64,000 nucleotides of DNA from Minisyncoccia bacterium (GCA_049997795.1 JBEKVT010000001.1:4085-68084), one strand, 5' to 3'; shown: positions 15,299-64,000, counted from the stretch's first letter. Numbers and translations: made by a program. Notes: generated from the letters alone by a model not told the origin.

Positions 15299-15357
15299 TA
15301 TTTTGGTGGTGGTGAAAATACGAAACGCCTATCAAATGACCCCTGACGCATCGGAAC

Positions 15358-15396
15358 CGTAAAAACGAAAAAACCGTTTTCGAGCGACGAAAACGG
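15358..15396 (-). terminator. Intrinsic terminator or attenuator in the rpoB leader
   Basis: On the minus strand, a perfect 9-bp stem (CCGTTTTCG/CGAAAACGG, 5-nt loop) is followed immediately by TTTTTTCGTTTTTA. It lies about 60 bp upstream of the rpoB start and downstream of the trmD region. Confidence 0.5.
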
Positions 15397-15612
15397 GACG
15401 GATTTTTGTTTACCGCAAGTTTATATGCACGGGTAGGACCAAATCTCTACCTTTGTAATCCTCCGCCGCAGGCAGGACTCACTCTGCGAAGTTAGAGAGA
15501 GCCTAGCAGAGCCGAGAATAGATGTCAAGTAGATGGCGTGTTTGACAAGATAGGTAAAGTATTTTTAAAAAAGCCGAGCGGTGATGCCCGGCTTGGGAAT
15601 GATGCCCTTTTG

Positions 15613-15906
15613 TCAGTATGTGCCTAGACTCATCTTTCTCAATCGCCCTTGATTTGCTTGGTCCCGGCGGATTTGAGCTTCGACGGATCTTTCGATCCTT
15701 CGGCATTCCCTGGCCCTTTTGGCAGGCGTACCAAAGCATCGATTCAATTCTTCCTGAGTAAGTGGTCGGCCTTCCCTTTCGGCCTGGGTGAATGTTTGCA
15801 GGGCATTAGTGAGCCCGTTTTGCATTGGATCATGGAACATTTGTGCCTCCTGATCAAAGGATACCACAGGAATTGGAAAAGTCACTTCTTCCGTTTCGAT
15901 TTCCAC
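15613..15906 (-). CDS. Hypothetical small protein (97 aa) between trmD and rpoB
   Basis: ORF only. It overlaps the trmD 3' end by about 25 nt. It is not L19 (rplS), which normally follows trmD. Confidence 0.25.
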   Translation of the reverse strand: MEIETEEVTFPIPVVSFDQEAQMFHDPMQNGLTNALQTFTQAEREGRPLTQEELNRCFGTPAKRARECRRIERSVEAQIRRDQANQGRLRKMSLGTY

Positions 15907-16568
15907 TCGTCTATTTTTTTGTGATGTCCTGTTAGTAAGATTCCCGGCACGCGGTACCCCTTTCCTTTGTATTTGAACGACTCCGGCCTGGTATAGACAT
16001 CAGGGCTAGCCACGCGCGATTCTTCGATGGATGAATCGTGACCGAGCGCGCCGGGCAAGCGCCTGGTGATCGCGTCGATCAAAATCATGGCTGGCAATTC
16101 CCCGCCGGTCAGAGTGTACGGGCCGACGGAAATATCGATCATCGGGAATATTTTTTTCACACGGGCATCGATACCCTCATAACGGCCGCAGATCAAGACG
16201 ATGTCCGTGAATCTTTTCAACGAATCGGCCGTCAAATTAGTCATCTGCTTCCCGACCGGGCTGAAGAATATGGTCTTCGTCTTTTTGCGTCCGGCGGCGT
16301 TTTTCAATTTCTTGCCGACAGCTTTCTCAATCGCCTTCACCACAGGCAAGGCTTCGATGACCATACCTGGACCGCCGCCGTACGGCCGGTTGTCGACGCG
16401 CCGGTCGGCATAGGTCGGCTTCTTCCCTCTTCTGGCGACGACAAAATCCCGCGGGTTGTAATACCTTATCGCGATAAGCTTCTCTTTCCTGGCTCGTTTG
16501 ACGATAGAGGCATCGAGATACGACTCTAGGCTTTCCGGGAATAGAGTTATGACATGGAAGGTGATCAT
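15882..16568 (-). CDS. trmD: tRNA (guanine37-N1)-methyltransferase
   Basis: 228 aa SPOUT-fold protein. The start MITFHVITLFPE and later ...GRYEGIDAR, ...GGGPGMV are typical TrmD motifs. Confidence 0.85.
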   Translation of the reverse strand: MITFHVITLFPESLESYLDASIVKRARKEKLIAIRYYNPRDFVVARRGKKPTYADRRVDNRPYGGGPGMVIEALPVVKAIEKAVGKKLKNAAGRKKTKTIFFSPVGKQMTNLTADSLKRFTDIVLICGRYEGIDARVKKIFPMIDISVGPYTLTGGELPAMILIDAITRRLPGALGHDSSIEESRVASPDVYTRPESFKYKGKGYRVPGILLTGHHKKIDEWKSKRKK

Positions 16569-34137: not shown

Positions 34138-34269
34138 GAAACGAGGCCTTAAAATAAGGAGTTTAGCTTGATTGACAAATTAATATAATTTGTGCTATAA
34201 TTAAAAAGAATTTCAGATAGTCCTTCACCTCTTACCTTAACGTCAGTAAACAAGAAAGGACCGTGTCCT

Positions 34270-34830
34270 TTGAAAATCTTAATCCTCTACGCGATCAACG
34301 TGATGTCGATCGCTTTCCCTCTGGCTATATTGGAAATATGGCTGGAGCAGTTTAAGGTCGGCAAATGGGGCGCCACTGAATTCCAACACCCCTTTTGGGG
34401 CAAAAAGATCCAGATCGGCCTCTTAGATCGGATCACGGAGAAGTCCTACGTCACGCCGTATCATCTCATGATGTTCGGCGCGATCATCCCCGCGGTCACT
34501 ATCTTGAACTTCCTGCTGTTCTGGCATCTCTCGGGCCATTCATGGCTCGTCATGGATGTCGGCGGCGCGAAAATCGTCCCGATCATATTCCTGCCGACAG
34601 TCTGGCTCGGGAATATGGTCACTGAGGATTTCCTCTGGTTCGCAATCCAGTCCGTCACCGGGTGGCGCGAACCGAAGGCCCTTGAAAGGCTTCTTGCAGG
34701 AGATTTCGTGTGGCATACCGAGTTTGTCGAATTGTCCCGCTCGATCATGCTGCCGAGATTTTACATCGTCATCCCTCTTTGGGTGGCGATACTTCTGGTC
34801 ACGCAGAGCCTCATCGTCCAGTTCGCCTGA
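34270..34830 (+). CDS. Hypothetical polytopic membrane protein
   Basis: 186 aa, about 5 TM. No recognised motif. Confidence 0.4.
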   Translation: MKILILYAINVMSIAFPLAILEIWLEQFKVGKWGATEFQHPFWGKKIQIGLLDRITEKSYVTPYHLMMFGAIIPAVTILNFLLFWHLSGHSWLVMDVGGAKIVPIIFLPTVWLGNMVTEDFLWFAIQSVTGWREPKALERLLAGDFVWHTEFVELSRSIMLPRFYIVIPLWVAILLVTQSLIVQFA

Positions 34831-34925
34831 ATCAGGCGAACGATCAACCCACCAACGGGAAAAAGCCCGCTCGGTGGGCTTTTCTTTTGTGGTAAGGTCT
34901 TTTGAATGGATAACGGGCCTACATT

Positions 34926-35264
34926 TCAGGCTTCTCTGACCCACGGGCGCGCGTATCTGAGATTATGGACTATATCGAACAAGAGCCACAGGCCGGCGGC
35001 GATGGCTAGGGTGATGACCGCTTCGACGGTGAACGAAGTGTGAATGAAGGCGGACAAGAGATAAGAGACGTCATCGGCGACGCCGGACAGCCTAGACATG
35101 TTCTGGATGACGTGCGGTATCGAGACGAGATAGACCATGGCGACAGCACAGGCGGCGAAGACCAGCCCTTTGAGCGCCTCCGGGTCGAAGGCCCGGCGCA
35201 GGAGATATACCGCCCGCACCCGGGTCATCACGTCTCTTTTGAGTTGTCCGTCGCGTTGATTCAT
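34926..35264 (-). CDS. Putative anti-sigma factor (membrane)
   Basis: 112 aa. It overlaps the upstream ECF sigma stop by 4 nt, which suggests coupling. The C-terminal half is hydrophobic. Confidence 0.45.
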   Translation of the reverse strand: MNQRDGQLKRDVMTRVRAVYLLRRAFDPEALKGLVFAACAVAMVYLVSIPHVIQNMSRLSGVADDVSYLLSAFIHTSFTVEAVITLAIAAGLWLLFDIVHNLRYARPWVREA

Positions 35265-47170: not shown

Positions 47171-48508
47171 TTATACCTCCTGTTTTGCTCCGAAACTGGT
47201 GAGCGTATGATATATGAAGGAACGGATATATTGGCAGAAATTCGGGTTAGGCCGTCCAAAATCATTGCGATTATAACGGCAACCCCCGCCACATGTTCCC
47301 ATGAAAGGACAGGATCTGCAAGACGCGATCTCCAGAGTCGTCTCCCTAGAGAAGCTCGACCATAGAGGATTGTCCTGGATATTCATCTCGCTATCAATCG
47401 GGATCCAGAAGTCCGTGTTGTGCAGGAAGGCTTGGCATGGGCCGATAAGGCCGTCGGCGCTCACGACCATCTGGCCGCGATATCCGGCGTCGCATTCCGC
47501 TATGACAAACCTGCTTTCCGCGATCCCTCTCAGATATCTCAGCCCCCTCGGTTCAAGAATCCCCCGGGCGAGGAGCCTCCGGTATTGAGCCGACATCTTG
47601 CGACCGAGATCGTCCCAAAACGACAGCTCTTCCTCAATGGATTCGCCGGCCTGTCTTATGCTGAGGTTGAACCCTATGCCCCGGATGTCTTCCCTGACGA
47701 AGAAATCCGTGATTTGTTCCAGGTGCGGCGCGCTCTCGCGAGTGACCGTGCAAAGAGCGGCATATTCCACTCCTGCCCTGCGGCATTCGTTTATAAGGCC
47801 AAACGACTGCTTAAAGACGTCAATGTTGGGCTTCCTCGGAACACGAGCGGCGTTGGTTATCTCAGAAGGGCCGTCGATAGAGACTCCGATGGTGATGCCG
47901 TTTTCTTTGCAGAACTCGATCAATCCGGCCGGGCGCAGAGTCCCATTCGTGGTTATCTGTATGCTGATCTTTCTTTTTCCATATCTGTCGCGTATGTATC
48001 GGACGCACCGCGTTATCTTATCCCATTCGATGAGCGGCTCGCCGCCATAGAAGAAGATTGATTTTTCTCCTCCATCCAGGGCCATGAAATAATCGACGGC
48101 TTCTAGCATCTTGGACAGGTCCAAAGACCGTCGCTTCGAGAATCTCAGGAGATTCTCGAAGCAATATCCGCAACAGAGATTGCAGAGATCGGTCATCACC
48201 AAGATGAGCGTCGAGACCTTGGCTTTTTTGAGATGCCGCTGTACCTTTGCAGAGACTTCGTCAAAAAGACGCTCGTCGTCTCCGGTTTCAACCATCAAAC
48301 GACTATCTTGGAGATTCCGTATTTCCTTCGTTGTGGGCTGATTTACTAGTATCCGATTCGTCGTTTCTTCGTCACACACAATTACTGTAGAAGTCAGAGA
48401 ATGCAATAGGATGCTCCAATCGGAATAACGCAACATAAACGCAAACTCCGACCAGCTGTTACCCAAGCATTCACGAAGCGAAATGATTTCCTTACCTAAA
48501 GTGATCAT
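47171..48508 (-). CDS. Radical SAM / SPASM-domain enzyme (peptide-modifying maturase-like)
   Basis: 445 aa. CNLCCGYC is a CxxxCxxC motif; then GGEPL. The C-terminal SPASM reads ...CRSCPFMGTCGGGCRYN...NFCQ. An N-terminal extension of about 100 aa could be an RRE. Confidence 0.85.
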   Translation of the reverse strand: MITLGKEIISLRECLGNSWSEFAFMLRYSDWSILLHSLTSTVIVCDEETTNRILVNQPTTKEIRNLQDSRLMVETGDDERLFDEVSAKVQRHLKKAKVSTLILVMTDLCNLCCGYCFENLLRFSKRRSLDLSKMLEAVDYFMALDGGEKSIFFYGGEPLIEWDKITRCVRYIRDRYGKRKISIQITTNGTLRPAGLIEFCKENGITIGVSIDGPSEITNAARVPRKPNIDVFKQSFGLINECRRAGVEYAALCTVTRESAPHLEQITDFFVREDIRGIGFNLSIRQAGESIEEELSFWDDLGRKMSAQYRRLLARGILEPRGLRYLRGIAESRFVIAECDAGYRGQMVVSADGLIGPCQAFLHNTDFWIPIDSEMNIQDNPLWSSFSRETTLEIASCRSCPFMGTCGGGCRYNRNDFGRPNPNFCQYIRSFIYHTLTSFGAKQEV

Positions 48509-48648
48509 TATTGTCCCCTCTTTTTGTTTTTTAAAAGAACCTGACGTTCAGTTTTTACCTTACTACTTCGTTCTGGTTTGTCAATCAAAACCGCCACGCG
48601 GATCCGGTGGCTGCGAGCGGTACGGCACAAGATCAAAGTTTATTTCGC

Positions 48649-49854
48649 CTATCCAGAACCGCCCGTCGAAGTCGCCACTTGATACAAGCCGCGCACTCCC
48701 CACCAGGCGGTGAAATAGAGCTTGTCCGCTTCGGGAGAATACAATATCTCGTTAAGCTCGGGAGTCTGGTTTTTGATGTCGAGAAGGGCAGCGTTGTCCA
48801 ACAACTGATATCGCCGCAGGTCTCTCAGGTCTTGTCCGGGAAAGACGTCGATGGTACCGTCTTCCGCCGCGTTGTAAAGATCGGCGCCGTAGACGAAGAG
48901 CCCGAGAGAGGCCCCAGGCAGGGAGAATCGTTCGAACGACATATCGCCGGTCTTGACCCTTATCCCGTAAGGGACCGACTCACAACCGATGTAGACATAT
49001 CCGGACGACGTAGCGGTCTTCACGAAAGGCATGTCGTTGCTTATGTCGCACGGCTCGACCTTCATGGAGGAGATGGGGGCGAGCGTAATCGCATCGGCTT
49101 TCTCGAAGCCGTTCGACGTGCCGCCGCCGAAATAGAGCTCGGTCGAGCTCGCGTATACGCCGATCGCTGCGGAGTGGCCGTAAGGGATATGTCCCACGGA
49201 GTTAAGGGCGAGCCTGCCGTCGCTTATCCTGACGCGGAAGACGCTGGACGGGTAGGTGTTGGTGATCCCGTATATGTAGGCGCCGTCGGTCACGATGGCC
49301 GGTCTGCGGCCGGCATCGACGGAGCTCGTGCTTATGACGGTCGAGACCGCATAAGTATGCGGATCCAAGCTATAGATATCGAGCGAGCCGTTGCTCGAAA
49401 GATCGAGATACACCTTGTCGTTCAGCGGATCATAGACCATGGTCCCGATATCCCCCGCAACCGGGAGTCCGACCAGGATCGGACGGAAGATATCCGCGGC
49501 GTCGAAGACCACCACCTCATTCGTAGGGAAAGGATTGCTGCCGAATCCCAGCATGCCGATAAAGATCCTGCCGTCGGCGACGGCCGTTCCGTGGGCATAG
49601 GCGAGAATATTCGGGGATCTGGCCGAGACTCTGGCGGTGCCAAAAGCCGTTCTAGGCTGGATAGCGGAAAGGACAGTGCGATCGATATGATGGCTCAAGA
49701 TCGCCAGTGGAGCGGTTCTGTGCGGGGAAACGAACGGCTCTATCCAGGCCGGTCCGGCAGCGATGCGGGTCTCGCGCCAACAATACGCAAAAAAGACGAG
49801 GGACAAGAGAGCGAACAGGGCCGCAATGATGGTGGAGGGCTTCTTCATGTCCAA
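48649..49854 (-). CDS. Secreted beta-propeller repeat protein (YVTN/PQQ-like repeats)
   Basis: 401 aa with an N-terminal signal/TM. Repeated beta-strand blades contain recurring ...DG..Y.G.. motifs. Confidence 0.5.
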   Translation of the reverse strand: MDMKKPSTIIAALFALLSLVFFAYCWRETRIAAGPAWIEPFVSPHRTAPLAILSHHIDRTVLSAIQPRTAFGTARVSARSPNILAYAHGTAVADGRIFIGMLGFGSNPFPTNEVVVFDAADIFRPILVGLPVAGDIGTMVYDPLNDKVYLDLSSNGSLDIYSLDPHTYAVSTVISTSSVDAGRRPAIVTDGAYIYGITNTYPSSVFRVRISDGRLALNSVGHIPYGHSAAIGVYASSTELYFGGGTSNGFEKADAITLAPISSMKVEPCDISNDMPFVKTATSSGYVYIGCESVPYGIRVKTGDMSFERFSLPGASLGLFVYGADLYNAAEDGTIDVFPGQDLRDLRRYQLLDNAALLDIKNQTPELNEILYSPEADKLYFTAWWGVRGLYQVATSTGGSG

Positions 49855-54552: not shown

Positions 54553-55650
54553 ATGAATATCGTAGCCCGGAACAGGCCGACAATCTCGCTGGGGACGCTG
54601 GGCATCGCAGGCGCCTGCGCTGTCCTCGCTATAGCCCTTTTTGCCGTTACCGCTCCGAAAGTCCATGCTTTTGGCCATAATTTCGGCGGGGATAGTTATA
54701 ACAACAATAGCGGCAGCCACAACGGCAATGGGGGCGGTTTTCCAAACAGTGGAGGCAATAACAATGGGAGCGGAAATAATTGGGGCAGTAACAATGGCGG
54801 TAACGGCAACGGTCGGAATAACAATAATAATGGCGGCGGCCAAAACAACAACACCGGCGGGCCCGATTCACATTGGCTGGACCATCGGATCACCCAGCCC
54901 CCTTTTCAGAATTATCATTACCCCGTTCCGTCTTTTCCACATTTTGACCATCCTCATTACCAGCCGCCCGTGATCCAACCAGTCACATATTATCAGCCGA
55001 CCCAATATATCTATCAGTCGGTTCCGACTTATTCCTATCAAAGCTATCCAGACTATTATCAGTATCCCACTAGCTACAGTTACCCGACTACGTACTATCA
55101 GCAACCGACTCAGATATACGCATATCAGACGCCTTCATACCCCTACTACACGAATAACCAATATACCGTCACCGGCCAATCCAATAATTCGAATGAACTG
55201 AACATCAGCTGCTCCGCCGAACCTTCCGCGTCAGCCGTCGGCCAGCCCGTCACGTGGACCGCCACGGTCACCGGCGGCGCGGCGCCTTACACGTACTCGT
55301 GGTCCGGATCCGACGGGATCTCCGGCTCGCAGGGCTCGGTCACGAAGTATTACGATTCCGCCGGCGAGAAAACCGCCATAGTCATGGTGACTTCCGCAAA
55401 CGGCCTGACCAGCACACATCCTTGCGACAACACGTTGACGGTGCAGGGCGGCGGCCAGGGAGCCTATCTCCCGCAGACCGGCGCTGCCGCTCCCTCGCAG
55501 ACACCGGTCGAGAACGGCAACCCGAATGCGGCCGCGGCCGCGCTCTCCAACGTCCCTTGGGGATGGCTAGCGTCCCTCATCATCCTGGTGCTTCTTGGGA
55601 CGATGGCGTATCTTCTGTTCGAGCGCCAAAAGGTAAAGATCAGTCCTTGA
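54553..55650 (+). CDS. LPXTG-anchored cell-surface protein with Gly/Asn-rich and Tyr/Gln/Pro-rich low-complexity regions and an Ig-like domain
   Basis: Signal peptide, a GGNNNG... tract and a YQ(Q)P/T repeat tract. The C-terminus has LPQTG, then the hydrophobic WLASLIILVLLGTMAYLLF, then the charged ERQKVK: a sortase sorting signal. Confidence 0.7.
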   Translation: MNIVARNRPTISLGTLGIAGACAVLAIALFAVTAPKVHAFGHNFGGDSYNNNSGSHNGNGGGFPNSGGNNNGSGNNWGSNNGGNGNGRNNNNNGGGQNNNTGGPDSHWLDHRITQPPFQNYHYPVPSFPHFDHPHYQPPVIQPVTYYQPTQYIYQSVPTYSYQSYPDYYQYPTSYSYPTTYYQQPTQIYAYQTPSYPYYTNNQYTVTGQSNNSNELNISCSAEPSASAVGQPVTWTATVTGGAAPYTYSWSGSDGISGSQGSVTKYYDSAGEKTAIVMVTSANGLTSTHPCDNTLTVQGGGQGAYLPQTGAAAPSQTPVENGNPNAAAAALSNVPWGWLASLIILVLLGTMAYLLFERQKVKISP

Positions 55651-56062
55651 ATAGCTCTCTATACTTCTCCCATTCCCCTTCTTCGATGTCACGGAAGATC
55701 TCCTTCTCGTGGATCTGTGATTTTTGATAAAGCTCGTCGTCCAGCTCTCTGGGACGAAGGTGGAAGTGAAGGTGGCTCACCTTAAGCTTGCTGTCAGGTA
55801 TGAAGGGCCGAAAATTTTGACAGATGTCACAACCCTTAGCGAAGCTGTTGAGGATTTTTTCTTGTACGTTCACCACTTCCTCAAGGAGGCCGTCCCTTTC
55901 TTCTTTTGTAAGCTCGCTTAATCTTTCTACATGACGCTTTGGTATGACCAGTAGATGTCCGGGCATTAATCGTGGATTGCTCAAGACGGTAAGAGCGTAT
56001 TTTGTGTCATGGATTATCTGCTCGCCATCATGGGCGATGATCTTGCAGAATCGGCATTCCAT
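55640..56062 (-). CDS. HIT-family hydrolase
   Basis: 140 aa with the histidine triad HLHFHL. Its GC is lower (~47%) than the surrounding chromosome. Confidence 0.8.
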   Translation of the reverse strand: MECRFCKIIAHDGEQIIHDTKYALTVLSNPRLMPGHLLVIPKRHVERLSELTKEERDGLLEEVVNVQEKILNSFAKGCDICQNFRPFIPDSKLKVSHLHFHLRPRELDDELYQKSQIHEKEIFRDIEEGEWEKYRELFKD

Positions 56063-56096
56063 TCATCTATTATAGCAGAAGTCCCGTCTCAAAACG

Positions 56097-56138
56097 TCGG
56101 TCGGCTGCATGGCACGATGTTGGAACCATTGTGCAACG
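56097..56138 (+). repeat. Cassette-associated conserved element, copy 1 (divergent: ...CGGCTGCATGGCACGATGTTGGAACCATTGTGCAACG)
   Basis: Read directly; 22/26 identity to the core consensus. Confidence 0.7.
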
Positions 56139-56248
56139 GGAGGTGGAGGAGTATCTATGGCAAGACTCCTGCCAACCCTGACTAGCAACCTCTATAACCA
56201 CACATCCTTATTTTATCTTCTTCCGTATATATCCTCCGCAACCTAAAT

Positions 56249-56443
56249 TTATTTCTTTCCTTTTATATTAATCAGGACCAGGCAGATGATTATAAAAATT
56301 ATTGAAACACAAAACATGATCCAAGAGTATGAAATCGCATGCTGATTTTGAGTAATCTTCCAAACATTTATTATGCTCATCAGACCGATCCCTATCCAAA
56401 AACTGATAGCCCACTCCAATTGTCTTTTGCTTTTATTTATCAT
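56249..56443 (-). CDS. Tiny two-TM membrane protein (64 aa), very AT-rich; paralogue of the next gene
   Basis: MINKSKRQLEWAISFWIGIGLMSIINVW.... GC is about 30% against roughly 62% for the chromosome. Confidence 0.4.
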   Translation of the reverse strand: MINKSKRQLEWAISFWIGIGLMSIINVWKITQNQHAISYSWIMFCVSIIFIIICLVLINIKGKK

Positions 56444-56628
56444 TTTTTAACTCTTTTTAGCAATATGATATTCAATAATAATCCCATGACTGCAACCCCG
56501 ATTATCCCATAGTTATAAAGCAATATATTGCCCTGCGGAGTATGTCGATAATTCATAATGAGATTTATAAGACTATAAACACCTCCTCCAATCCAGAATC
56601 CTATCCCATATTTATATATTTCATTCAT
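56440..56628 (-). CDS. Tiny two-TM membrane protein (62 aa), very AT-rich; tandem paralogue
   Basis: MNEIYKYGIGFWIGGGVYSLINLIMNY.... It overlaps the downstream gene by 4 nt. Confidence 0.4.
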   Translation of the reverse strand: MNEIYKYGIGFWIGGGVYSLINLIMNYRHTPQGNILLYNYGIIGVAVMGLLLNIILLKRVKK

Positions 56629-56684
56629 TATATAATCTTATCCTCCTTATGATCATTATCCCTTGATTTCCATGATTGGCTGGC

Positions 56685-56717
56685 AGTGTGGTACAACGTT
56701 GGAACCATTATGCAACG
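56685..56717 (+). repeat. Cassette-associated conserved element, copy 2 (TGGCTGGCAGTGTGGTACAACGTTGGAACCATTATGCAACG)
   Basis: Read directly. Confidence 0.8.
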
Positions 56718-56733
56718 AGAATTGAAATGATGT

Positions 56734-56967
56734 CTATCGCGGGGCCGGCAAGCCGGCGCTCTTGTAGCACACATTCTCGCATGATTGTTCCTGCTTCGCC
56801 GCCGCATCCCTGCCCGATGAGTCAAAAACGCCCTGGCACAGAACGACACAGTCGCCTACCGCGGTCGTCGCTTCTTGGTCTTGGTTATGGCTATGTATCC
56901 CGATCTCTATGCCGATCAAGATAAGGATGACGACGATTATCAAGATCAACGCCTGCGTTTTTGTCAT
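56734..56967 (-). CDS. Small secreted/membrane 4-Cys protein (77 aa)
   Basis: A hydrophobic N-terminus, then ...GDCVVLCQG...SCENVCY. Confidence 0.35.
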   Translation of the reverse strand: MTKTQALILIIVVILILIGIEIGIHSHNQDQEATTAVGDCVVLCQGVFDSSGRDAAAKQEQSCENVCYKSAGLPAPR

Positions 56968-56996
56968 GTTTTTTCTTTATCTATCCCTATTCTTCC

Positions 56997-58028
56997 TCAC
57001 TGGACCGCCGAGGACGCGCCGACTGAAAACGTCGCCGTGTCGCCGCTTATCTCTGTGAGTTTGATGCCGTAGTTCGGAGTGCTATATGTTTGGCCGACGG
57101 AAAGAGTCTGCGGCGTGATCGGAACGACGGCGATCATGCAGCGGATCCGGGGCGGCTTGTCCGACGGGAATGAGTTCCAGCATCCGACCGGCGTGATCTC
57201 TATGGTCGCCGAAGACGGGGATAGGTCTTGCAAAGTGAAGTAAAAGCTCTCGTTTCTAACCTCCGCGATGCCGCCCTGCCGTAACGACACGCTTCCGGGC
57301 ACATCGAGCTCCTTGATGGCGGAAGGAACATCAAGGTCTCCCTGCGGCTCAGTGCTCGCGTAGGCATCCGCCTCCGCTTGTAGCGCGGCGGACAGGACCG
57401 AGGGATCAACGGAGGCTCCCGCAAGCGAGACGGTCTTCGCGAGGACGCCGGCGTTGCTCCCTCCCCCGTCGCCGACGACGAGAAAGTCCGTCGTGCTCAA
57501 GGGAATGATGCTCGTATCGAAGCGGCGGCCGCTCGGTAACATGATGAGGCCAGACATCGTGGCGTTCGAGATGTCCGCCGTGGTGGTCGCGCCCGAAGTC
57601 CCCGAGCTTGTCCCCTCCGGATATGCGACCATCCATTGCCCTGATGCGGGACTATAGAAATATTTCGTCTGAGCGATCGGGCTCGCGTGGCCGTTTTGCT
57701 CGTCGGTTATCGTTTGGGCCGCTGAATCGACGACGTAGATCATTACGCCTCCCGGAGAACCGACTTGGAGCGTTTTTACCAGGGTACCTCCGGGAAACAA
57801 CGCCGTATCCTTCGTGGTTGTCGAGAGGATTTGCCAGGAGCTCGGGTACCAAAAAGCGAAGCCGAGATCCGGATCGGTGTATCGGATCATGCCGTAGGTA
57901 TCGGCCGTGGGAGCGCCTGTCGGAGAAGATGTTCGCGGGCGAATGAGGAAATACGCTCCACCGCCGACTATGAGCAGCGCGAGCACGACGAGCGCCCACG
58001 TCTCGACCTTGCCGAGTTGATTCTTCAT
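56997..58028 (-). CDS. Secreted hypothetical protein (343 aa, GC-rich)
   Basis: N-terminal signal/TM segment MKNQLGKVETWALVVLALLIVGGGAYFLI. No catalytic motif recognised. Confidence 0.45.
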   Translation of the reverse strand: MKNQLGKVETWALVVLALLIVGGGAYFLIRPRTSSPTGAPTADTYGMIRYTDPDLGFAFWYPSSWQILSTTTKDTALFPGGTLVKTLQVGSPGGVMIYVVDSAAQTITDEQNGHASPIAQTKYFYSPASGQWMVAYPEGTSSGTSGATTTADISNATMSGLIMLPSGRRFDTSIIPLSTTDFLVVGDGGGSNAGVLAKTVSLAGASVDPSVLSAALQAEADAYASTEPQGDLDVPSAIKELDVPGSVSLRQGGIAEVRNESFYFTLQDLSPSSATIEITPVGCWNSFPSDKPPRIRCMIAVVPITPQTLSVGQTYSTPNYGIKLTEISGDTATFSVGASSAVQ

Positions 58029-58046
58029 ATCTTCAATTGTAGCATT

Positions 58047-58073
58047 CTAGCTGCGTGGTGCTATGTTGGAACC
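58047..58073 (+). repeat. Cassette-associated conserved element, copy 3 (TAGCTGCGTGGTGCTATGTTGGAACC)
   Basis: Read directly. ACG is replaced by GCT in the core. It ends 4 bp before the stop codon of the 680-aa gene. Confidence 0.8.
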
Positions 58074-58076
58074 TTT

Positions 58077-60119
58077 TTAACGTTTTGTCACCCCGATCTT
58101 TATGTTCCCGTCGGCAAAATTACCAGCCCGATCAAAAGCTCGTACGGTGATGACATGCGTCCCTATGGGAAGCGAGACGGAGAGCGGCGATGCGGCGGGC
58201 AAGAAAACGCCGTCGTCAAATCGGACGTAATAATTTCCTTGCAAACCGCTTGAATTATCTTGGCTTTCGAATGCCAGCCGTATCACCTCGCCCTCGGATA
58301 CCGCGGTTTTGCTCGCTTTGATGACGGGTTGCAATGGCGGCGTCGTGTCTATCATCACCTTATAATTGGAGACTGCGCCGCTCGTCCCGTTTTTTACCGG
58401 CGCGATATGGAAGTAATAGATGCCATCGGTAAGGCCGGAAAAAGAAACCGAGTCCGCGGATGTCGTGCTTGCTCCAACGAGAGAAGAAGCCGTAGGTATG
58501 TTGTCAAGTGAATAAAGATAGTGATAGCCGTTAGAGGTTATCCACGTAAAGAGGCCGTCCGGCTCGTTGTACCATCGCGCGCTATTGGGATATGTTGGAG
58601 AAAAGACCGGGATCGAGGAAGTGCTATTGTATATCGTCGATTTATCGACAATGCGATAACTGCCATCGGTGGCAAGGCGGAGGACGTCTGTGCCTAATTC
58701 ATCATTCGCCAATATCCGCGTACTTGTACTGAAATGCAACGTCACCTCTCCTTCCTTAAGAGGCTGTAGGACGAGCGTGAACACGTTCCCGTTTAGTCCG
58801 GAAAAGCCCGGGGTCAGAAGGCCGCAAGTCACTCGCACCTCGCCGCGTTTATTATCAATGCTTTTTTCCAGAAACATCGTCGGCGCGCAAAAAGAGTCCG
58901 CGGTGATGATATCTACCACCCGGATCCTTGCCGAATCATAAGTCAAATCGACCTGGGCAACATTAATGGCTTCTCCGCCCGTCAATACATCTATCGCTAC
59001 CTGTTGTTCGGATGATCTGCTCCAGGCGGCGAAGCTCGGGTCGAGCGTCAGAGTAGAATTATAAATCGTGTAAGGCGGTCTTCGGATGGAAAGCGAATGG
59101 TTGTAAAGCAGCGAGCTGTCGACAGAAAAGGCCGCGACCAAGACGATGGAAGAACAAATGATCAAGATGATACGCTCTATCGCGTGGCGCTTTTTTGTCG
59201 CCCCGCGAGTATGGAAAAAAAAGACAATGAGGACGAAGATGAGGGCGACGATCGAGGAAAAGATCGCGGCCTGCACGGTATAGCCAGCTGGATAAAGGAT
59301 GAGCATCCCTCCAGGACTTTCATAAAGGCCGTGGAAGACGAGATTTTTTATGAAATACGCCCTCCCTTCTACGATCGCCTCACGGTCAGATTGCCCTTTT
59401 TGGACCCAATCGGAGCCCGTGTTGAAATACGCCGCAAGCAGGAGCTTGGTGTTCGGATCCCCGAAGGTCGTTCCGACCACGCCGTCCTGTTTCGAATAGA
59501 AGATGAGATTCTCTCCGTCAGTCAAATATCTGCTCTTAAAGGCGCCGGCATAGGCGTCGTCAACCGAGTAGCCGCCGAACACGGCTCCTATCGTCCGGCC
59601 ATTGTCGATCACTGGGTAGCCGGCGATAACCAAGAGCGAGACTGAGCTGCCGCGCTCTATAGAGATCACGGGTTTCCCTTCCGCCACCCTGCGCCCATAG
59701 CTTGTCGCCTGAAATATATAATCTCCGCTACGAGAGGAAGCCGGGGTTTGTGACAGGACTATCCCTCTGTCATCCGTAACAATGATGGTGTCGAGGCGGT
59801 GAATGGTTTGCTCGCTCTGTAGCGTTGAGGCGAGATGCGAGATGTCTCTCGTCTCAATGAGCTTCGCAAGACTGGAAGAGGTGGCGATCTCTCCCGCTTG
59901 TTGAAACACGTATCGTGAATCGGCATCAAGACCGCGCTGTATTTGCCCGACTGCGCTGTCGAAGAATCTCACTTCGAACCAGTGCGTGACCTGATATGAA
60001 AAAAGCGACACTATCGAAAACGCGACGACCGTCGCCGCCATCACGATAAGGATGAATCTTTCTTGTCGTGCGAATTTTATGATCCGGACAAACATCTCGC
60101 TTATATGAAGGCCTTGCAA
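58077..60119 (-). CDS. Large membrane-anchored extracytoplasmic protein (680 aa), hypothetical
   Basis: N-terminal TM plus a second TM cluster mid-protein, with beta-rich extracellular regions. Confidence 0.45.
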   Translation of the reverse strand: MQGLHISEMFVRIIKFARQERFILIVMAATVVAFSIVSLFSYQVTHWFEVRFFDSAVGQIQRGLDADSRYVFQQAGEIATSSSLAKLIETRDISHLASTLQSEQTIHRLDTIIVTDDRGIVLSQTPASSRSGDYIFQATSYGRRVAEGKPVISIERGSSVSLLVIAGYPVIDNGRTIGAVFGGYSVDDAYAGAFKSRYLTDGENLIFYSKQDGVVGTTFGDPNTKLLLAAYFNTGSDWVQKGQSDREAIVEGRAYFIKNLVFHGLYESPGGMLILYPAGYTVQAAIFSSIVALIFVLIVFFFHTRGATKKRHAIERIILIICSSIVLVAAFSVDSSLLYNHSLSIRRPPYTIYNSTLTLDPSFAAWSRSSEQQVAIDVLTGGEAINVAQVDLTYDSARIRVVDIITADSFCAPTMFLEKSIDNKRGEVRVTCGLLTPGFSGLNGNVFTLVLQPLKEGEVTLHFSTSTRILANDELGTDVLRLATDGSYRIVDKSTIYNSTSSIPVFSPTYPNSARWYNEPDGLFTWITSNGYHYLYSLDNIPTASSLVGASTTSADSVSFSGLTDGIYYFHIAPVKNGTSGAVSNYKVMIDTTPPLQPVIKASKTAVSEGEVIRLAFESQDNSSGLQGNYYVRFDDGVFLPAASPLSVSLPIGTHVITVRAFDRAGNFADGNIKIGVTKR

Positions 60120-60270
60120 TATGCTTTTATAGTATCACAGTATTCGAAATGAGGATTCACTCGGAATCGGTCCAGATTTCGCCCAGTGACTTCTATTCCT
60201 CGGGCTCGAACAAACCCCCGTGGCGTGGCTCAAAATATGGTGGTGCTTCGGTCTCCGATACTAAATTTAT

Positions 60271-60300
60271 TTGGCTGGCCGTGTGGTACGAAGTTGGAAC
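60271..60300 (+). repeat. Cassette-associated conserved element, copy 4 (TGGCTGGCCGTGTGGTACGAAGTTGGAACT)
   Basis: Read directly. The stop codon of the SRPBCC gene starts 1-3 bp after the element. Confidence 0.8.
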
Positions 60301-60302
60301 TT

Positions 60303-60749
60303 TTATTTCTTAAGCATCTTCCTCAATTTGTCGATAACAGCCTTCTCCCAATACTTCATCGAGTACCATCTTATTAATGGTCTTGCGACGATACGCAGCC
60401 AAGGCCTATGGATAGAGACCTGATACGTATAGTCAATGATGGTTCCCTCTGGGTTCTCGGAAAGCAAGAGTTCTTCATGCCCGGAAGTCCCGAACTTGGG
60501 GTTTTCGTTGTCTGAACTGAATCCTCTTCCGGGGATGATCCGAGTCATCATCCTTACTGGGAATAGCCGCCCGAACGACTTCACTCCGGCTTCCATCTCC
60601 AGATAATTCTCTTCGCGTTTCGTGACTTTGATCGATTCGGCGACCTTCGGGAAATATAATGGGAACTTCTCAAAATCGGTTATTATCTTGAAGACTTGTT
60701 CTCTAGGTGCTTTGACAAGCCATCGGCCGTGGAGAGTGATTTCTTTCAT
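60303..60749 (-). CDS. SRPBCC-superfamily protein (polyketide cyclase/dehydrase-like)
   Basis: 148 aa with a Polyketide_cyc2-like pattern (...WLVKAPREQVFKIITDFEKFPLYFP...). Confidence 0.6.
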   Translation of the reverse strand: MKEITLHGRWLVKAPREQVFKIITDFEKFPLYFPKVAESIKVTKREENYLEMEAGVKSFGRLFPVRMMTRIIPGRGFSSDNENPKFGTSGHEELLLSENPEGTIIDYTYQVSIHRPWLRIVARPLIRWYSMKYWEKAVIDKLRKMLKK

Positions 60750-60776
60750 GATTCAAGTATATCAAAAAAATTTGTT

Positions 60777-60801
60777 AGCTGCGTGGTACGATGTTGGAAC
60801 C
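60777..60801 (+). repeat. Cassette-associated conserved element, copy 5 (TAGCTGCGTGGTACGATGTTGGAACC)
   Basis: Read directly. It lies about 40 bp upstream (plus-strand coordinates) of the MTase gene's stop codon. Confidence 0.8.
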
Positions 60802-60841
60802 ATTATGCCCGATACTCAATCAAAACAGATCTCGTATGGTT

Positions 60842-61564
60842 TTAGCTGACTTTTGTTGCGATAACTCCTATATATCTTTTATATAATGAATCGGGAAGAA
60901 GCGACAATAATAGACTGAATAGATTAATGACTTTCGATATACACCGACGCGTGACACCTTGTTTGGTCACGAACCGAAAATAAAATCTTCCGACATATCC
61001 AGAGTAATCGATCCTGCAACCTTTTGCGATCATCACAGATGTGATTGCCTTTAGGTTCATAGATGACAGAACATGGTTCTTAAGGACATCCGGTTCAAAT
61101 AACTTGTACAAGAAGTAATAGATCGGGGAATTGAGGTTGGGCACATCGATGATTATCTTTCCTCCGGGCTTTAGAAGTTCCAAATGCTTATCCAAGACCT
61201 CCTCCAAATCATTGAAGTGCTCGATAAATCCGAACGAGCATACCAGATCGTACTTGATCTGTGATTTAAAATCGAAGATATCTGCTTCATAGAAATGATT
61301 ATATCTGTATCCCCTGCTCTTGAACCAACCAGATAAAGAATCCGTGCCGTGAAATGAATCGACTCCGTTTAATTCATATCCTTTTTCGCCAAAAACAGCT
61401 AAAAATTTTCCTGGGTAGCAACCGATCTCCATGCAATTGGCAGTAATCGTGTCGGGTATTTCTTTCTCGATCCATAGGCGAATCGGGTGATTACGCGGCG
61501 CGATCTCGAAAACCGTTTCTTTCCAATGATTACTCCAGTATTCTTCTGTCGAGACTGATTGCAT
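60842..61564 (-). CDS. Class I SAM-dependent methyltransferase
   Basis: CMEIGCYPGKFLAVFGEKGYELNGVD is motif I. The likely start is MQSVSTEEYW. The track's 15-codon N-terminal extension runs through repeat copy 6. Confidence 0.65.
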   Translation of the reverse strand: MQSVSTEEYWSNHWKETVFEIAPRNHPIRLWIEKEIPDTITANCMEIGCYPGKFLAVFGEKGYELNGVDSFHGTDSLSGWFKSRGYRYNHFYEADIFDFKSQIKYDLVCSFGFIEHFNDLEEVLDKHLELLKPGGKIIIDVPNLNSPIYYFLYKLFEPDVLKNHVLSSMNLKAITSVMIAKGCRIDYSGYVGRFYFRFVTKQGVTRRCISKVINLFSLLLSLLPDSLYKRYIGVIATKVS

Positions 61565-61570
61565 TCTATT

Positions 61571-61599
61571 GGCTGGCCGTGTGGTACGATGTTGGAACC
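61571..61599 (+). repeat. Cassette-associated conserved element, copy 6 (GGCTGGCCGTGTGGTACGATGTTGGAACC)
   Basis: Read directly. It ends 36 bp before the SET-domain gene's stop. Confidence 0.85.
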
Positions 61600-61635
61600 T
61601 TTTTAACAAATCTGGGCTCTTAAATGCGATAATTT

Positions 61636-62022
61636 CTACTCAATCCTTAAAAAATAACCCTTGCAATTAGGACTCTTGCAATTACATAGAACCCGGACTC
61701 CGCCCTTCTCAGTCTGGTTATAATCACAGGTGATTTCTTCACCTAGCATTATGTCCCTTACAGATTTCAGGTGCGGTTGAACCATTGAAATATCTAAAAC
61801 TGTATTGGGGTCACAGGAATGATTAATCCAATTGAGTACAGCATTATCGTCTACATACAAACCCTTCCCAATGTGGGCAAATCTTGGAGTGGGAACGTTT
61901 ACAACAGTATCTACAGGAACTATATAAAATACTTCTCCTTTATTGATTGGCCGTTCGGTAAAAATACCCATATTATCTATGGGACTTTTTCTTTTTTTGA
62001 GAAATGGGTGATTATTCGGCAT
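61636..62022 (-). CDS. SET-domain protein (putative protein-lysine methyltransferase)
   Basis: 128 aa with NHSCDPN and GEEITCDY, the SET signatures. A post-SET-like CNCKSPNC follows. Confidence 0.65.
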   Translation of the reverse strand: MPNNHPFLKKRKSPIDNMGIFTERPINKGEVFYIVPVDTVVNVPTPRFAHIGKGLYVDDNAVLNWINHSCDPNTVLDISMVQPHLKSVRDIMLGEEITCDYNQTEKGGVRVLCNCKSPNCKGYFLRIE

Positions 62023-62683
62023 ATTCTCTTAGCACAGCATCGACAAGAACATTCATTGGATCTATCTTATTGATTGGCAACTCTTTTGACATTAAAGCTA
62101 CTTCGGAACACCCAAGAATGATGGACTCCGATACTTTTGAGTATTTTCGAGCAAGGTTCTGTGTGAATGTCTCCTGCTTCTTCTTATCAATTCCGAGGTT
62201 GTAATTCGATATTGCTCGAGACAAATCTTTTACTTCCGATTCTAATAATTCATTGCATTTAATACCGCTAAACTTATATAAGCCGCTTGCCAATGTATAA
62301 GGAGTGCCAAAGACTGTGACAGATTTAACCTGAAGATTATGTAAACATTTTTCAACTTCTGCCCGAAGATTAATTATAGGTACTTTTGTTGCCCGCTGCA
62401 GGGTATCGAGGTATACATAAGCAGTGTTGCAAATAATTGCAATGATATCTGAACCACTTTTCTCCAATTGCTTTAAACCATCAACATAAGGAGAGAGAAT
62501 CTCGTGTGTACCATTATTAAAAATAAGTTCAGGAGCAGAAATGCTGTTTATTATCACATGGGGGTATTCACTATTATCCTTAGGCTTATTTTTCTCAATA
62601 AATTTTCTTATCAATTCTAAGTAGAAAAAACCAGTAGACTCAGGCCCTATTCCCCCTAGTAGCCCTATAGTCTTCTTTTTCAT
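62012..62683 (-). CDS. Asp/Glu/hydantoin racemase-family protein (aspartate racemase-like)
   Basis: 223 aa with two Cys-containing active-site blocks (...IIAIICNTAYVYLD... and ...IILGCSEVALM...). It overlaps the SET gene start by 11 nt. Confidence 0.65.
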   Translation of the reverse strand: MKKKTIGLLGGIGPESTGFFYLELIRKFIEKNKPKDNSEYPHVIINSISAPELIFNNGTHEILSPYVDGLKQLEKSGSDIIAIICNTAYVYLDTLQRATKVPIINLRAEVEKCLHNLQVKSVTVFGTPYTLASGLYKFSGIKCNELLESEVKDLSRAISNYNLGIDKKKQETFTQNLARKYSKVSESIILGCSEVALMSKELPINKIDPMNVLVDAVLREYAE

Positions 62684-62723
62684 ACAAAAACTCTACTACA
62701 TAAACGCGGGTTCGGGAAGTAGT

Positions 62724-62751
62724 GCTGGCTGCGTGGTACGATGTTGGAACC
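62724..62751 (+). repeat. Cassette-associated conserved element, copy 7 (GCTGGCTGCGTGGTACGATGTTGGAACC)
   Basis: Read directly. It lies in the divergent intergenic region between the racemase (-) and the SGNH hydrolase (+). Confidence 0.85.
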
Positions 62752-62915
62752 ATAATAACGCAAAAATTGGAATAAACAAAAAGCCGCCCGAATTAGCCGG
62801 CTGCGCGGCAAGAAGTGGATGTGTCTTTCGCTCAGTCCTTTTTGTCCTATCCGGACTAGTATAGCCGGGCGAGCGGCTTCTATTTATCGATGATGGATTT
62901 CCTGCTAAAATCACC

Positions 62916-63740
62916 TTGAGAGACAAAGATCAGCGAGGCCTTATGGGAACTAAAAAGATCATCGTCCTATACGCGATCGTCGCCGTCGGCTCGGCATTGG
63001 CAGTCGGCTGGATCTTCTCATATGTCGGACGCGGCGCGCCCGGACCGAAGGGCCTCACCACGAGCGTCCTGTTCATCGGCAACAGCCTGACTTATGTCAA
63101 CGATCTGCCGCAGACTCTCTCCGATATCGCCCGATCGCTCGGCGACACGGCCGAGACCGATATGTACGCTCCGGGTGGTTATACGCTCAAGCAGGACGCA
63201 CAAGACCCGACGGCTCTGGACAAGATAGCGTCCAGGCCTTGGGATTTCGTAGTCTTGCAAGAGCAGAGCGAGCTGCCCGCTCTTCAAGACTCCCAGGTGG
63301 ACGACGAGGTGACGCCTTATGCATTGGAGCTCGCGAGCGATGTCCGTCAGGCTGGGCCTGACACCAAGGTCGTATTCTTCGAGACATGGGCTTACAAGGG
63401 CGGCGATCCACAGTATTGTGCTTCGACTCCGACCTTGTGCGATTTCGAATCCATGCAAGACCAGCTGTCGAGATCGTACGGCCTCTTGGCGCAAAGGTCC
63501 GGCGGGTTGCTGGCCCCGGTCGGCGAAGCGTGGCGATCGGCGCGGGATGCCTATCCTGAGATCGAGCTCTATCAGAGCGACGGCAGGCATCCGTCGGCGG
63601 AAGGCACCTACCTCGCGGCCGCTGTGTTCTACATGGTCTTGTTCAAGAAGGACGTCGCCGGCGCGGCATCTTTAGGCATCGACCCGGCACAAGCGAAGAT
63701 CCTGCAACAGGTCGCGAGACAGGTGGTCTTCAGACAGTGA
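62916..63740 (+). CDS. SGNH/GDSL-type hydrolase (DUF4886-like), secreted
   Basis: N-terminal TM/signal, then ...VLFIGNSLTYVNDLPQ (GNSL in place of GDSL) and a C-terminal ...SDGRHPSAEG (catalytic D-x-x-H). Confidence 0.6.
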   Translation: MRDKDQRGLMGTKKIIVLYAIVAVGSALAVGWIFSYVGRGAPGPKGLTTSVLFIGNSLTYVNDLPQTLSDIARSLGDTAETDMYAPGGYTLKQDAQDPTALDKIASRPWDFVVLQEQSELPALQDSQVDDEVTPYALELASDVRQAGPDTKVVFFETWAYKGGDPQYCASTPTLCDFESMQDQLSRSYGLLAQRSGGLLAPVGEAWRSARDAYPEIELYQSDGRHPSAEGTYLAAAVFYMVLFKKDVAGAASLGIDPAQAKILQQVARQVVFRQ

Positions 63741-63761
63741 TGGCGCCGATGATCTTTTGTT

Positions 63762-63790
63762 GGCTGGCTGCGTGGGACGAAGTTGGAACC
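63762..63790 (+). repeat. Cassette-associated conserved element, copy 8 (GGCTGGCTGCGTGGGACGAAGTTGGAACC)
   Basis: Read directly. A double stop (TAA TAA) of a minus-strand gene begins 2-5 bp after it. Confidence 0.85.
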
Positions 63791-63794
63791 TTTA

Positions 63795-64000
63795 TTAAAG
63801 GATTTTAAAGCCTAAGACGATAAATTCGTCCTGTGAATGAATTTGTCTGGAATAATATTTCTCGAACGTTTTCGTCTTTTCCTCTTCTGATCTATAAACC
63901 TCATGTCCGACCCTATTCAGTGGTAATTTTCCAAAAGTCATCCTAGACTTCTCGATAATCGTTGCGGTGGCAACATTCTTTCCATCGTTCTCAGCCAGAA
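63795..64000 (-). CDS. 3' end of an unknown gene running off the window edge (at least 68 aa seen)
   Basis: The minus-strand frame ...LAENDGKNVATATIIEKSRMTFGKLPLNRVGHEVYRSEEEKTKTFEKYYSRQIHSQDEFIVLGFKIL** is stop-free up to the edge. Confidence 0.4.
   Translation of the reverse strand, partial: LAENDGKNVATATIIEKSRMTFGKLPLNRVGHEVYRSEEEKTKTFEKYYSRQIHSQDEFIVLGFKIL

Follow-up and report, generated by a model that had tools for sequence, protein, structure and literature searches.

A tRNA-Gln-anchored array of repeat-ended gene cassettes in a Minisyncoccia bacterium and its possible relation to large serine recombinases

The genomes of bacteria of the Candidate Phyla Radiation (CPR, Patescibacteria) measure about 1 Mb; these bacteria are host-dependent and are believed to trade genes mostly among themselves. 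To our knowledge, no dedicated gene-capture platform has been described for them. Here we analysed a 64,000-nt stretch of DNA from Minisyncoccia bacterium (GCA_049997795.1 JBEKVT010000001.1:4085-68084), called the window in the following, in whose last part (55.6-64 kb) small, unrelated genes of differing composition follow one another. A preliminary description, made from the sequence, had taken them for independently acquired cassettes with a cargo typical of integrons. How were these genes brought together, and by which machinery? In this study, we describe a 35-nt repeat, termed EL, which separates the genes, and trace the array that it forms to the 3' end of a tRNA-Gln gene. We judge it rather probable that this is a cassette array based on a large serine recombinase (LSR), functionally similar to an integron and built by site-specific recombination at that tRNA end.

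The EL repeat, its array and the tRNA-Gln anchor

Eight copies of EL lie in the window, all in the same orientation and one at every switch of composition, and a weight-matrix scan found none in the other 56 kb. In a position-weight scan the eight sites score 49-61 bits and the next best site in the 64 kb 9.6; the 24-nt consensus, with at most three mismatches allowed, gave six matches as compared to none in 100 shuffles. The consensus of the element is rAAAr-GTTCCAAC-wTCGTmCCAyrC-n-GCCAGC-AA, and that of the eight window copies, read on the minus strand, is AwAAwGGTTCCAACATCGTACCACrCrGCCAGCmA. Conservation is limited to about 35 nt, the flanks outside being unconserved; among the columns an almost invariant A at -6 stands out, as do the A-rich 5' edge and the GCCAGC-AA at the 3' edge. 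The genes are encoded on the minus strand in seven of the eight units, with EL at the stop codon or at most about 35 nt away from it. Downstream of EL a -10-like TAnAAT box often follows at 6-25 nt, with a start codon after it, and the next gene is usually co-oriented with the EL.

Several known types of element were considered for EL and rejected. Inspection of the consensus by eye gave no dyad, as required for a dif/Xer-like or palindromic core, and no hexamer spacing fitting a sigma-70 or extracytoplasmic function (ECF) promoter. A DNA uptake sequence was rejected since all copies lie within 8 kb of the 64 kb. A plain duplicate of the tRNA 3' end was rejected as well: EL exceeds it by 5 nt, and agreement with the local tRNA-Gln is confined to GGTTC and the final 4-6 nt. 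Rfam gave no credible match at the ELs at E values up to 10.

Per-gene GC content and GC at third codon positions (GC3) were computed with the 42 background open reading frames (ORFs) of the window as reference (GC 0.578, sd 0.028, range 0.509-0.622; GC3 0.739, sd 0.059). Genes of the block at 55.6-64 kb range in GC from 0.312 to 0.603, and the sharp differences between neighbours to which the preliminary description had drawn attention are confirmed. The lowest values belong to two tandem membrane protein ORFs of 64 and 62 aa (0.318 and 0.312; z about -9.5), which had rightly been put at about 30%; the highest belong to a 343-aa secreted protein (0.603) and a DUF4886/SGNH-like gene (0.596), for which the figure of about 60% was also correct. 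A 680-aa protein has 0.519. The HIT gene (0.466, z -4.0), the SRPBCC gene (0.461) and the methyltransferase gene (0.405) are intermediate as had been stated, but the SET (0.382) and racemase (0.363) genes, counted with them, lie nearer to the low extreme; an ASCH gene truncated at the window end has 0.387. Pfam matches to HIT, Polyketide_cyc (SRPBCC), Methyltransf_23, SET and Asp_Glu_race bear out the names given to these genes, and the gene described as an SGNH hydrolase matches DUF4886. The block also holds the 680-aa protein, of the sCache type, and a 77-aa ORF. The sequence TTTTATATTAATCAGG (56261-56276), quoted earlier as a flank of the small membrane genes, is the 3' coding end of the 64-aa ORF and no flank.

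In 1-kb steps GC stays at 0.50-0.64 up to about 55 kb and then runs 0.41, 0.61, 0.51, 0.53, 0.44, 0.40, 0.40 and 0.56. The transitions are sharp at 200-nt resolution, and the segments between successive ELs differ accordingly (Table 1). The upstream region, which had been called uniform, does dip to about 0.50 at 15000-16000, 34000-35000 and 48000-49000, but shows no alternation like that of the block. None of the three dips contains an EL.

The rest of the array was reached by a look-up of the exact racemase protein, which led to the parent contig and its siblings (L001-L006) in six samples. The source metagenomes are from peat (JGI 3300038416, 3300018015; ERZ27250022). L001 stems from a 657-kb contig of the Joint Genome Institute (JGI; Ga0427927_000007) and extends 8.7 kb past the window end, so that 72.7 kb were examined in all. 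Window coordinates equal 72684 minus those of L001, as derived from the offset of a 100-nt anchor; identity of the two was seen directly at this anchor, in the racemase protein and in eight repeat copies at matching positions. The parent contig carries 13 ELs in all, between tRNA-Gln and the HIT gene. The tRNA-Gln(CTG) gene directly follows pyrG at L001 5501-5572, corresponding to window 67112-67183, 3.1 kb past the window end, and five more cassettes lie between that end and the tRNA gene. The window itself contains no tRNA or tmRNA. Its segment at 56.1-64 kb is the distal eight units of a 13-unit array.

Between tRNA-Gln and the first foreign gene, which encodes a 197-aa membrane protein (segment GC 0.417), there is no EL. 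A unit is therefore made up of one or more genes with an EL after them, the tRNA end being the putative site of entry. The order of genes in the array is identical in the six places shown, from six samples, and 13 further places were summarised as similar (22 contigs read). Concerning the host, the racemase is labelled 'Minisyncoccia bacterium' at NCBI and the best relatives of pyrG (75-79% identity) are assigned to Patescibacteria, Paceibacterota or Parcubacteria, which identifies it as a CPR bacterium. One slot between two good ELs (L001 7528-7888, 360 nt, GC 0.51) has no called ORF and may be an empty or non-coding cassette.

EL arrays are found in dozens of CPR genomes. An exact-pattern scan with GTTCCAACNNNGTNCCAYRCNGCC over one genome per GTDB species gave at least 80 loci; among the 80 listed, about 75 are metagenome-assembled genomes (MAGs) of Patescibacteria and about five look like chance matches in other phyla. 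According to our own estimate, about 17 loci would be expected by chance. The groups bearing EL are Paceibacterota, Parcubacteria, Saccharibacteria, Microgenomates, Nomurabacteria and Adlerbacteria. The flanks of the listed loci are unrelated, so that conservation is confined to the element. A profile built from these matches picks up further, weaker copies, and none of the 45 loci with two or more ELs has them in mixed orientation. Spacing between ELs has a median of 693 nt (interquartile range 481-965), which is the size of a single gene. The ORFs between them encode NUDIX, HAD, GNAT, HIT and DUF559 proteins, methyltransferases, tiny membrane proteins and many unknowns, with GC varying from gene to gene. 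ELs are 85.4% identical within arrays and 78.1% between arrays, a difference reached in none of 2000 permutations. In about 20 loci the first EL detected by the profile comes 120-2,750 nt downstream of a tRNA-Gln gene on the same strand; this gene often follows dnaX (10 loci) or pyrG (5 loci).

Other arrays start at divergent pairs of tRNA-Ser genes about 100-400 nt apart (locus coordinates L012 2662-3200, L025 2754-3026, L099 5852-6111). One member of each pair is called with the odd anticodon ACT, and the EL tails of these arrays are of the CTCTCCGC or GCCCGC type; integration may have made a hybrid of one tRNA gene in each pair.

Cassettes turn over between relatives while the platform is kept. 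L008 and L027 share dus-dnaX-tRNA-Gln with 77% nucleotide identity over 4.2 kb, and past the tRNA only the ELs match. Likewise, L167, whose pyrG is 78% identical at the amino acid level to that of the window organism, shares prfB-ftsE-ftsX-pyrG with L001 at 72-77% nucleotide identity and the tRNA at 93.5%; homology stops exactly at the tRNA 3' end, where in L167 an unrelated 154-aa gene and an EL come next. The reverse case, shared cassettes among unrelated neighbours, is found as well. A HAD cassette of L008 and L045 is 78.6% identical over 765 nt, from EL to EL, and its downstream EL has private variants common to both loci; a NUDIX cassette of L010 and L065 is 66.6% identical. The SRPBCC cassette of the window matches an EL-bounded one in a Saccharibacteria MAG (L050) with 70% nucleotide and 66% amino acid identity from the start codon to the end of EL. 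The pyrG genes of the two lineages are only 56-58% identical, which points to transfer of the cassette between classes.

These comparisons, together with the repeat-delimited GC blocks, support the earlier proposal of independent acquisition: flanks are shared without the cassettes, and cassettes recur with homology bounded by EL. Co-oriented cassettes which have their own 3' site and vary between relatives, a feature of integron arrays, are found here too.

The racemase-SET pair was considered as another shared cassette and rejected. Its relatives in L171-L173 (66-71% nucleotide identity, contigs of GC 0.38-0.46) have no EL, and homology ends at the SET stop codon. This would be expected of a donor-type context, before the pair became a cassette. 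The pair belongs to a very small family, with 31 proteins at E ≤ 1e-20 among 5.8 billion, and the two domains are fused in three members (P0127, P0135, P0142).

Recombinase elements at the same tRNA genes

When the neighbours of the 75 arrays were clustered, an LSR of about 500 aa recurred in five loci, and no tyrosine recombinase was recurrent. The LSR has the Pfam domains Resolvase, Recombinase and Zn_ribbon_recom. It belongs to an element of constant layout, in which the tRNA gene is followed by the leftward LSR gene, a rolling-circle Rep gene (Phage_CRI / REP_ORF2-G2P) and an Xre-type repressor gene, then by DUF559 and cargo genes reading rightward, an EL and finally the cassettes. Full-size elements occupy the tRNA-proximal slot of several arrays (L042, L059, L170). 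The family is abundant in metagenomes and comprises at least 2,465 clusters at E ≤ 1e-40, its few named members being Paceibacterota or Komeilibacteria.

A scan of metagenomes with an LSR alignment returned 80 loci. In about 60 of them the 3' end of the LSR gene overlaps or abuts a tRNA gene on the opposite strand, most commonly tRNA-Gln (about 35) and otherwise tRNA-Ser, -Lys, -Tyr, -Trp, -Val, -Arg, -Asn, -Glu, -Pro or -Leu. About 30 EL matches were found in about 20 of the 80 loci. All of them lie on the strand opposite to the LSR and upstream of its start, with more ELs outward, and the five loci of the first scan show the same arrangement without exception in orientation. Where both ends are on the contig, the nearest EL is about 2-5.5 kb from the LSR start. 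An EL is present at 11 of the 13 LSRs which share at least 43% identity with the query and have 6 kb or more of flank; more distant LSRs lack one.

The 3' tail of EL, its last 8-18 nt, varies together with the tRNA targeted. It reads GCCAGC at tRNA-Gln, CTCTCCGC or GCCCGC at tRNA-Ser, CGCCCAC at tRNA-Val and GGGCGGAC at tRNA-Lys; the EL of L120 is identical to the end of the adjacent tRNA-Ser over 18 nt. The 5' two-thirds of EL are the same whatever the tRNA, and EL is thus a conserved element-side arm joined to a tRNA-like tail. Across loci GGTTC and CAGC together span 28 nt in EL as compared to 23 nt in tRNA-Gln, and the arm in L092 equals the tRNA T-arm/acceptor with an insert of TAGTG. In serine integrases, the motif of the zinc-ribbon domain is shifted 5 bp toward the centre in attB as compared to attP (PMC3783163). 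The 5-nt offset of EL matches this geometry. Judged from sequence, EL looks like the P-type (element-side) half-site of the LSR family and tRNA-Gln like the B-type arm, and the LSRs presumably act on EL.

A contig of 4,475 nt without tRNA (L131) carries an EL-like P-arm fused to an LSR-side arm, with TTTCTAATATCGTCCCAGACGGCCAGC directly joined to ATTGTTGAAAAATCA, inside the 3' end of the LSR ORF. Its P-arm has about three mismatches in the 8-mer and falls below the profile threshold. We read this junction, a single clear example, as a putative intact attP on an unintegrated element. In L170 (pyrG 77% identical) an LSR element resides in the orthologous pyrG-linked tRNA-Gln; no EL is detectable at its far end even at E = 200. 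To judge from the breakpoints, crossover may take place no more than a few nt from the tRNA 3' end; the identity blocks of 8-18 nt in the Ser, Val and Lys sites allow other positions.

The LSR ORF spans its own attachment site (L042 2571-4061, L088-L100, L131 2146-3708). In integrated copies the final 10-20 codons correspond to the complementary strand of the tRNA gene, and the attP form reads through the P-arm, so that integration replaces the C-terminus of the LSR. A LOOT RNA (Rfam RF03000, 66 bits, gathering score 46) lies in the LSR element of L059 at 1694-1802 (+), just upstream of DUF559, and a near-identical sequence is present in L042 (flipped) at about 3385-3470.

Possible mechanism, rival explanations and known systems

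In the mechanism we favour, the tRNA end would play the part of attI and EL that of attC, each unit consisting of a short leader, one or two ORFs and an EL. New units would enter beside the tRNA and push older ones outward, the newest being proximal, and GC would jump at every EL because each unit comes from a different donor. LSRs would insert small rolling-circle-replicon elements into tRNA genes, and mini-cassettes lacking an integrase could be moved in trans. One conceivable route is hitch-hiking, whereby an LSR element at the tRNA would excise with a distal EL as attR and carry the intervening cassettes along; in the new host it would leave via its own EL and deposit them. This would need only attL x attR chemistry. 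We extend the proposal to CPR bacteria at large only as a tentative idea, about which we are somewhat doubtful: these would carry a serine-recombinase analogue of the integron, in which single-gene cassettes ending in EL, as a P-type half-site that mimics the tRNA T-arm/acceptor, are captured at the 3' end of tRNA-Gln (more rarely of tRNA-Ser and others), form arrays of up to at least 13 and are exchanged between classes, the LSR being provided in trans by small rolling-circle elements with the same site.

Several observations weigh against a serine recombinase as the builder of the array. The link between LSR and EL is positional, not functional. No LSR, Rep or DUF559 was found in the 72.7 kb by tblastn with four LSRs, Rep and DUF559, nor any recombinase in the Pfam-scanned ORFs, and no LSR from the 657-kb parent contig is among the best 120 of the at least 2,465 family members. 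Of the LSR loci with sufficient flank, roughly half lack a detectable EL; these are mostly loci with LSRs of less than 43% identity and include L170. The ELs of the array match the local tRNA-Gln tail over only about 4-6 nt. Cassette starts show A-richness and, in column frequencies, no conserved P'-type arm, an absence which the hitch-hiking route would fit. The array is invariant across the sampled populations, and no movement is seen within the species. Finally, canonical serine integrases recombine only attP with attB, and are inactive on attL and attR unless a directionality factor is present (PMC3783163).

Which other explanations have to be considered? The array is not an integron. A classical integron or an integrase-less attC cluster (CALIN) would account for the co-oriented, mostly single-gene cassettes, the hypothetical or small-enzyme cargo, the mosaic GC and the array-specific repeat signatures. 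attC sites are imperfect inverted repeats of 57-141 nt (R''-L''...L'-R') which fold as single strands, whereas ELs are 35-nt sites without inverted-repeat arms. Single-stranded folds of about 130 nt around all eight junctions, on both strands, were no better than those of shuffles (z -1.15 to +1.65) and had no hairpin in common. Pfam scans covered 41 of the roughly 55 window ORFs of at least 100 aa, and for the extension on L001 the Pfam marks of called genes and a scan of five cassette ORFs were used; neither Phage_integrase/IntI nor any other recombinase domain was found in the 41 scanned ORFs or in the called genes of L001. The array lies between pyrG/tRNA-Gln and HIT and starts at the tRNA, not with attI/intI. 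Membership in the integrons, as the preliminary description implied, is thus unsupported, and we consider an integron or CALIN extremely improbable. EL might instead be a regulatory signal of the accessory genes (a promoter-upstream element, an operator or an RNA processing site) without any role in recombination. The TAnAAT box and start codon after it, and the usual orientation of the next gene, would suit such a signal. This explanation is nevertheless very improbable, given that homology between genomes breaks at ELs, that their tail tracks the adjacent tRNA species and that EL bounds LSR elements. Moreover, the SGNH-like gene is inverted between two ELs, no EL occurs in 56 kb of ordinary genes, and EL has neither a matching Rfam family nor a conserved fold.

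Recombination may also be due to another enzyme, for instance a chromosomal tyrosine recombinase encoded elsewhere, which acts on EL and the tRNA end while the LSRs merely share the hotspot. This would explain why no LSR is seen near the array of the window and why EL is conserved on one side only, an uncommon feature among serine-integrase sites. We hold this to be improbable, since the place and direction of EL with respect to the LSR are strictly fixed in some 20 independent loci, what reads as an intact junction of P-arm and P' adjoins an LSR gene, the 5-nt offset agrees with the geometry of LSR sites and the neighbours of 75 arrays include no recurrent tyrosine recombinase. The main rival accepts the LSRs and denies the mobility of the units: by tandem accretion and decay, each EL would be the attR scar of a full-size LSR element whose recombinase and replication genes were deleted, and the cassettes would be relics. 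The full-size elements in tRNA-proximal slots (L042, L059, L170) agree with such a history, and islands of successive integrations and degraded elements beside tRNA genes are documented for tycheposons (bioRxiv 10.1101/2020.12.28.424599). However, a tblastn search of the array recovered no piece of LSR, Rep or DUF559. The units are compact, EL being placed at the stop codon or no more than about 35 nt from it, and their spacing is narrowly distributed (median 693 nt); one and the same single-gene unit is also met in different genomes with identical EL-to-EL boundaries. In addition, EL tails mismatch the local tRNA, unlike what is expected of true local scars. We rate accretion and decay as unlikely, and prefer capture of EL-ended units with the help of an LSR.

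Such an array would be closest to serine-integrase systems in chemistry, and closest in outcome to the islands formed by staphylococcal cassette chromosomes (SCC) and tycheposons. With integrons it shares the fixed capture point, the co-oriented and mostly single-gene cassettes of about 0.5-1 kb with their own site at the 3' end, and a cargo which comprises small enzymes as well as small membrane or secreted proteins of unknown function. Repeats are more similar within than between arrays in both, and relatives keep the platform and not the cassettes. Unlike in integrons, no IntI was found, the site has 35 nt and no sign of a folded form, capture would take place at a tRNA 3' end, the candidate enzyme is an LSR on a separate mobile element, and many cassettes seem to bring a -10-like box. 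SCC elements, including SCCmec, are inserted by the CcrAB LSRs at the 3' end of rlmH and form tandem arrays with short direct repeats; recombinase-less elements are present in these arrays and are thought to be mobilised in trans. Insertion by an LSR at the 3' end of a conserved gene, tandem arrays with direct repeats and units lacking a recombinase would be features in common. SCC units measure 10-60 kb, have repeats of about 15-18 bp, use a protein-coding target and occur in staphylococci, whereas the present units measure 0.4-2.2 kb and occur in CPR bacteria.

Phage serine integrases (A118/LI, Bxb1, phiC31; PMC3783163) have the same set of domains, a P-arm motif 5 bp further out and attP beside the recombinase gene. 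Their canonical insertion is single and strictly attP x attB. Here, in contrast, up to 13 copies of the P-arm follow one another, separated by cargo without an integrase, and the right-hand half-site is not visibly conserved. Tycheposons of Prochlorococcus integrate at tRNA genes, and successive insertions push older elements inward; their islands, in small streamlined genomes, have scattered partial tRNA repeats, and a minority of the elements use LSRs (bioRxiv 10.1101/2020.12.28.424599). They are multi-gene elements defined by a lineage-specific tyrosine recombinase and shared replication hallmark genes, and their islands hold one or two elements and debris (bioRxiv 10.1101/2020.12.28.424599). 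Integration at tRNA genes and tandem elements flanked by partial tRNA repeats, here as a tRNA-like tail, are common to both. The elements associated with EL differ in carrying a serine recombinase and a G2P/Phage_CRI rolling-circle Rep. Furthermore, up to 13 tidy single-gene units are present here, and the conserved part of the 35-nt site imitates a tRNA with 5 nt inserted instead of simply repeating it.

The literature searched holds no description of these EL arrays, and a 2025 paper on genomic islands of Patescibacteria makes no mention of tRNA, recombinase or cassette. The array would be a second, mechanistically independent way to stockpile small adaptive genes at one locus. As a marker of cassettes, EL would allow the accessory gene pool of CPR bacteria to be listed from metagenomes, as attC does for integrons. 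An LSR family with a universal tRNA feature as attB and a short, well-defined attP arm would be of interest for genome engineering.

Contents of the units and neighbouring genes

The features of the window are listed in Table 1, in order from the HIT gene toward the tRNA.

Table 1. Units of the EL array within the window and the adjoining HIT gene. EL scores (bits) are from the profile of the element built on GTDB matches.
Feature	Coordinates	Strand	EL score (bits)	GC	Description
HIT-family gene	55640..56062	-			Pfam HIT 5e-12; distal to the last repeat, no EL after it
EL13	56098..56132	-	24		ACAATGGTTCCAACATCGTGCCATGCAGCCGACCG; most tRNA-distal and most degenerate copy
Cassette 13	56133..56676	-		0.344	two paralogous tiny membrane ORFs; no Pfam match
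Cassette 13 ORFs	56249-56443; 56440-56628	-			64 aa; 62 aa
EL12	56677..56711	-	40
Cassette 12	56712..58043	-		0.580	343-aa secreted/anchored protein (56997-58028) and 77-aa ORF (56734-56967)
EL11	58044..58078	-	17		abuts the stop codon of the 680-aa gene
Cassette 11	58079..60271	-		0.515	654-680-aa membrane protein, sCache_3_2 and weak cohesin-like domain
EL10	60272..60306	-	43		overlaps the SRPBCC stop codon
Cassette 10	60307..60771	-		0.452	SRPBCC/Polyketide_cyc gene (60303-60749)
EL9	60772..60806	-	32
Cassette 9	60807..61569	-		0.405	class I S-adenosylmethionine (SAM) methyltransferase (60842-61564)
EL8	61570..61604	-	48
Cassette 8	61605..62721	-		0.371	overlapping Asp/Glu racemase (62012-62683) and SET (61636-62022)
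EL7	62722..62756	-	39
Cassette 7	62757..63760	-		0.576	DUF4886/SGNH-like gene (62916-63740, + strand, inverted relative to the array)
EL6	63761..63795	-	42
Cassette 6, 3' part	63796..64000	-		0.385	ASCH-domain gene, cut at the window end

The HIT gene had been counted among the cassettes. It lies outside the last repeat and cannot be so called on present evidence; it is what originally lay downstream of tRNA-Gln, or else an old cassette which has lost its site. Its stop codon overlaps that of a convergent gene by 11 nt. This gene (window 54553-55650, +) encodes a 365-aa secreted protein with long N/G/Y/Q-rich low-complexity stretches and a weak PKD-like domain below the Pfam cut-off. At its C-terminus an LPQTG motif is followed by a hydrophobic anchor, as in a sortase-type substrate, in a CPR genome. 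Cumulative GC skew peaks near 52 kb and then falls, which could reflect the replication terminus or be a mere effect of the foreign genes on the minus strand.

The repeat may also account for breaks in assemblies and for a mis-binned contig in public MAGs. Many public contigs start or end at or beside an EL, as in L005 (1-35), L006 (1-35), L044 (38), L046 (27), L074 (67) and L167 (12396-12555); the repeat may disrupt assembly, or else populations may differ at these junctions. A contig of 6.7 kb (L086, JBEKOM010000035.1), binned in a 'Candidatus Bathyarchaeia' MAG from SPRUCE peat, has the same run of repeats as a part of the array, with identical spacing and flanking bases, and is almost certainly a mis-binned CPR contig.

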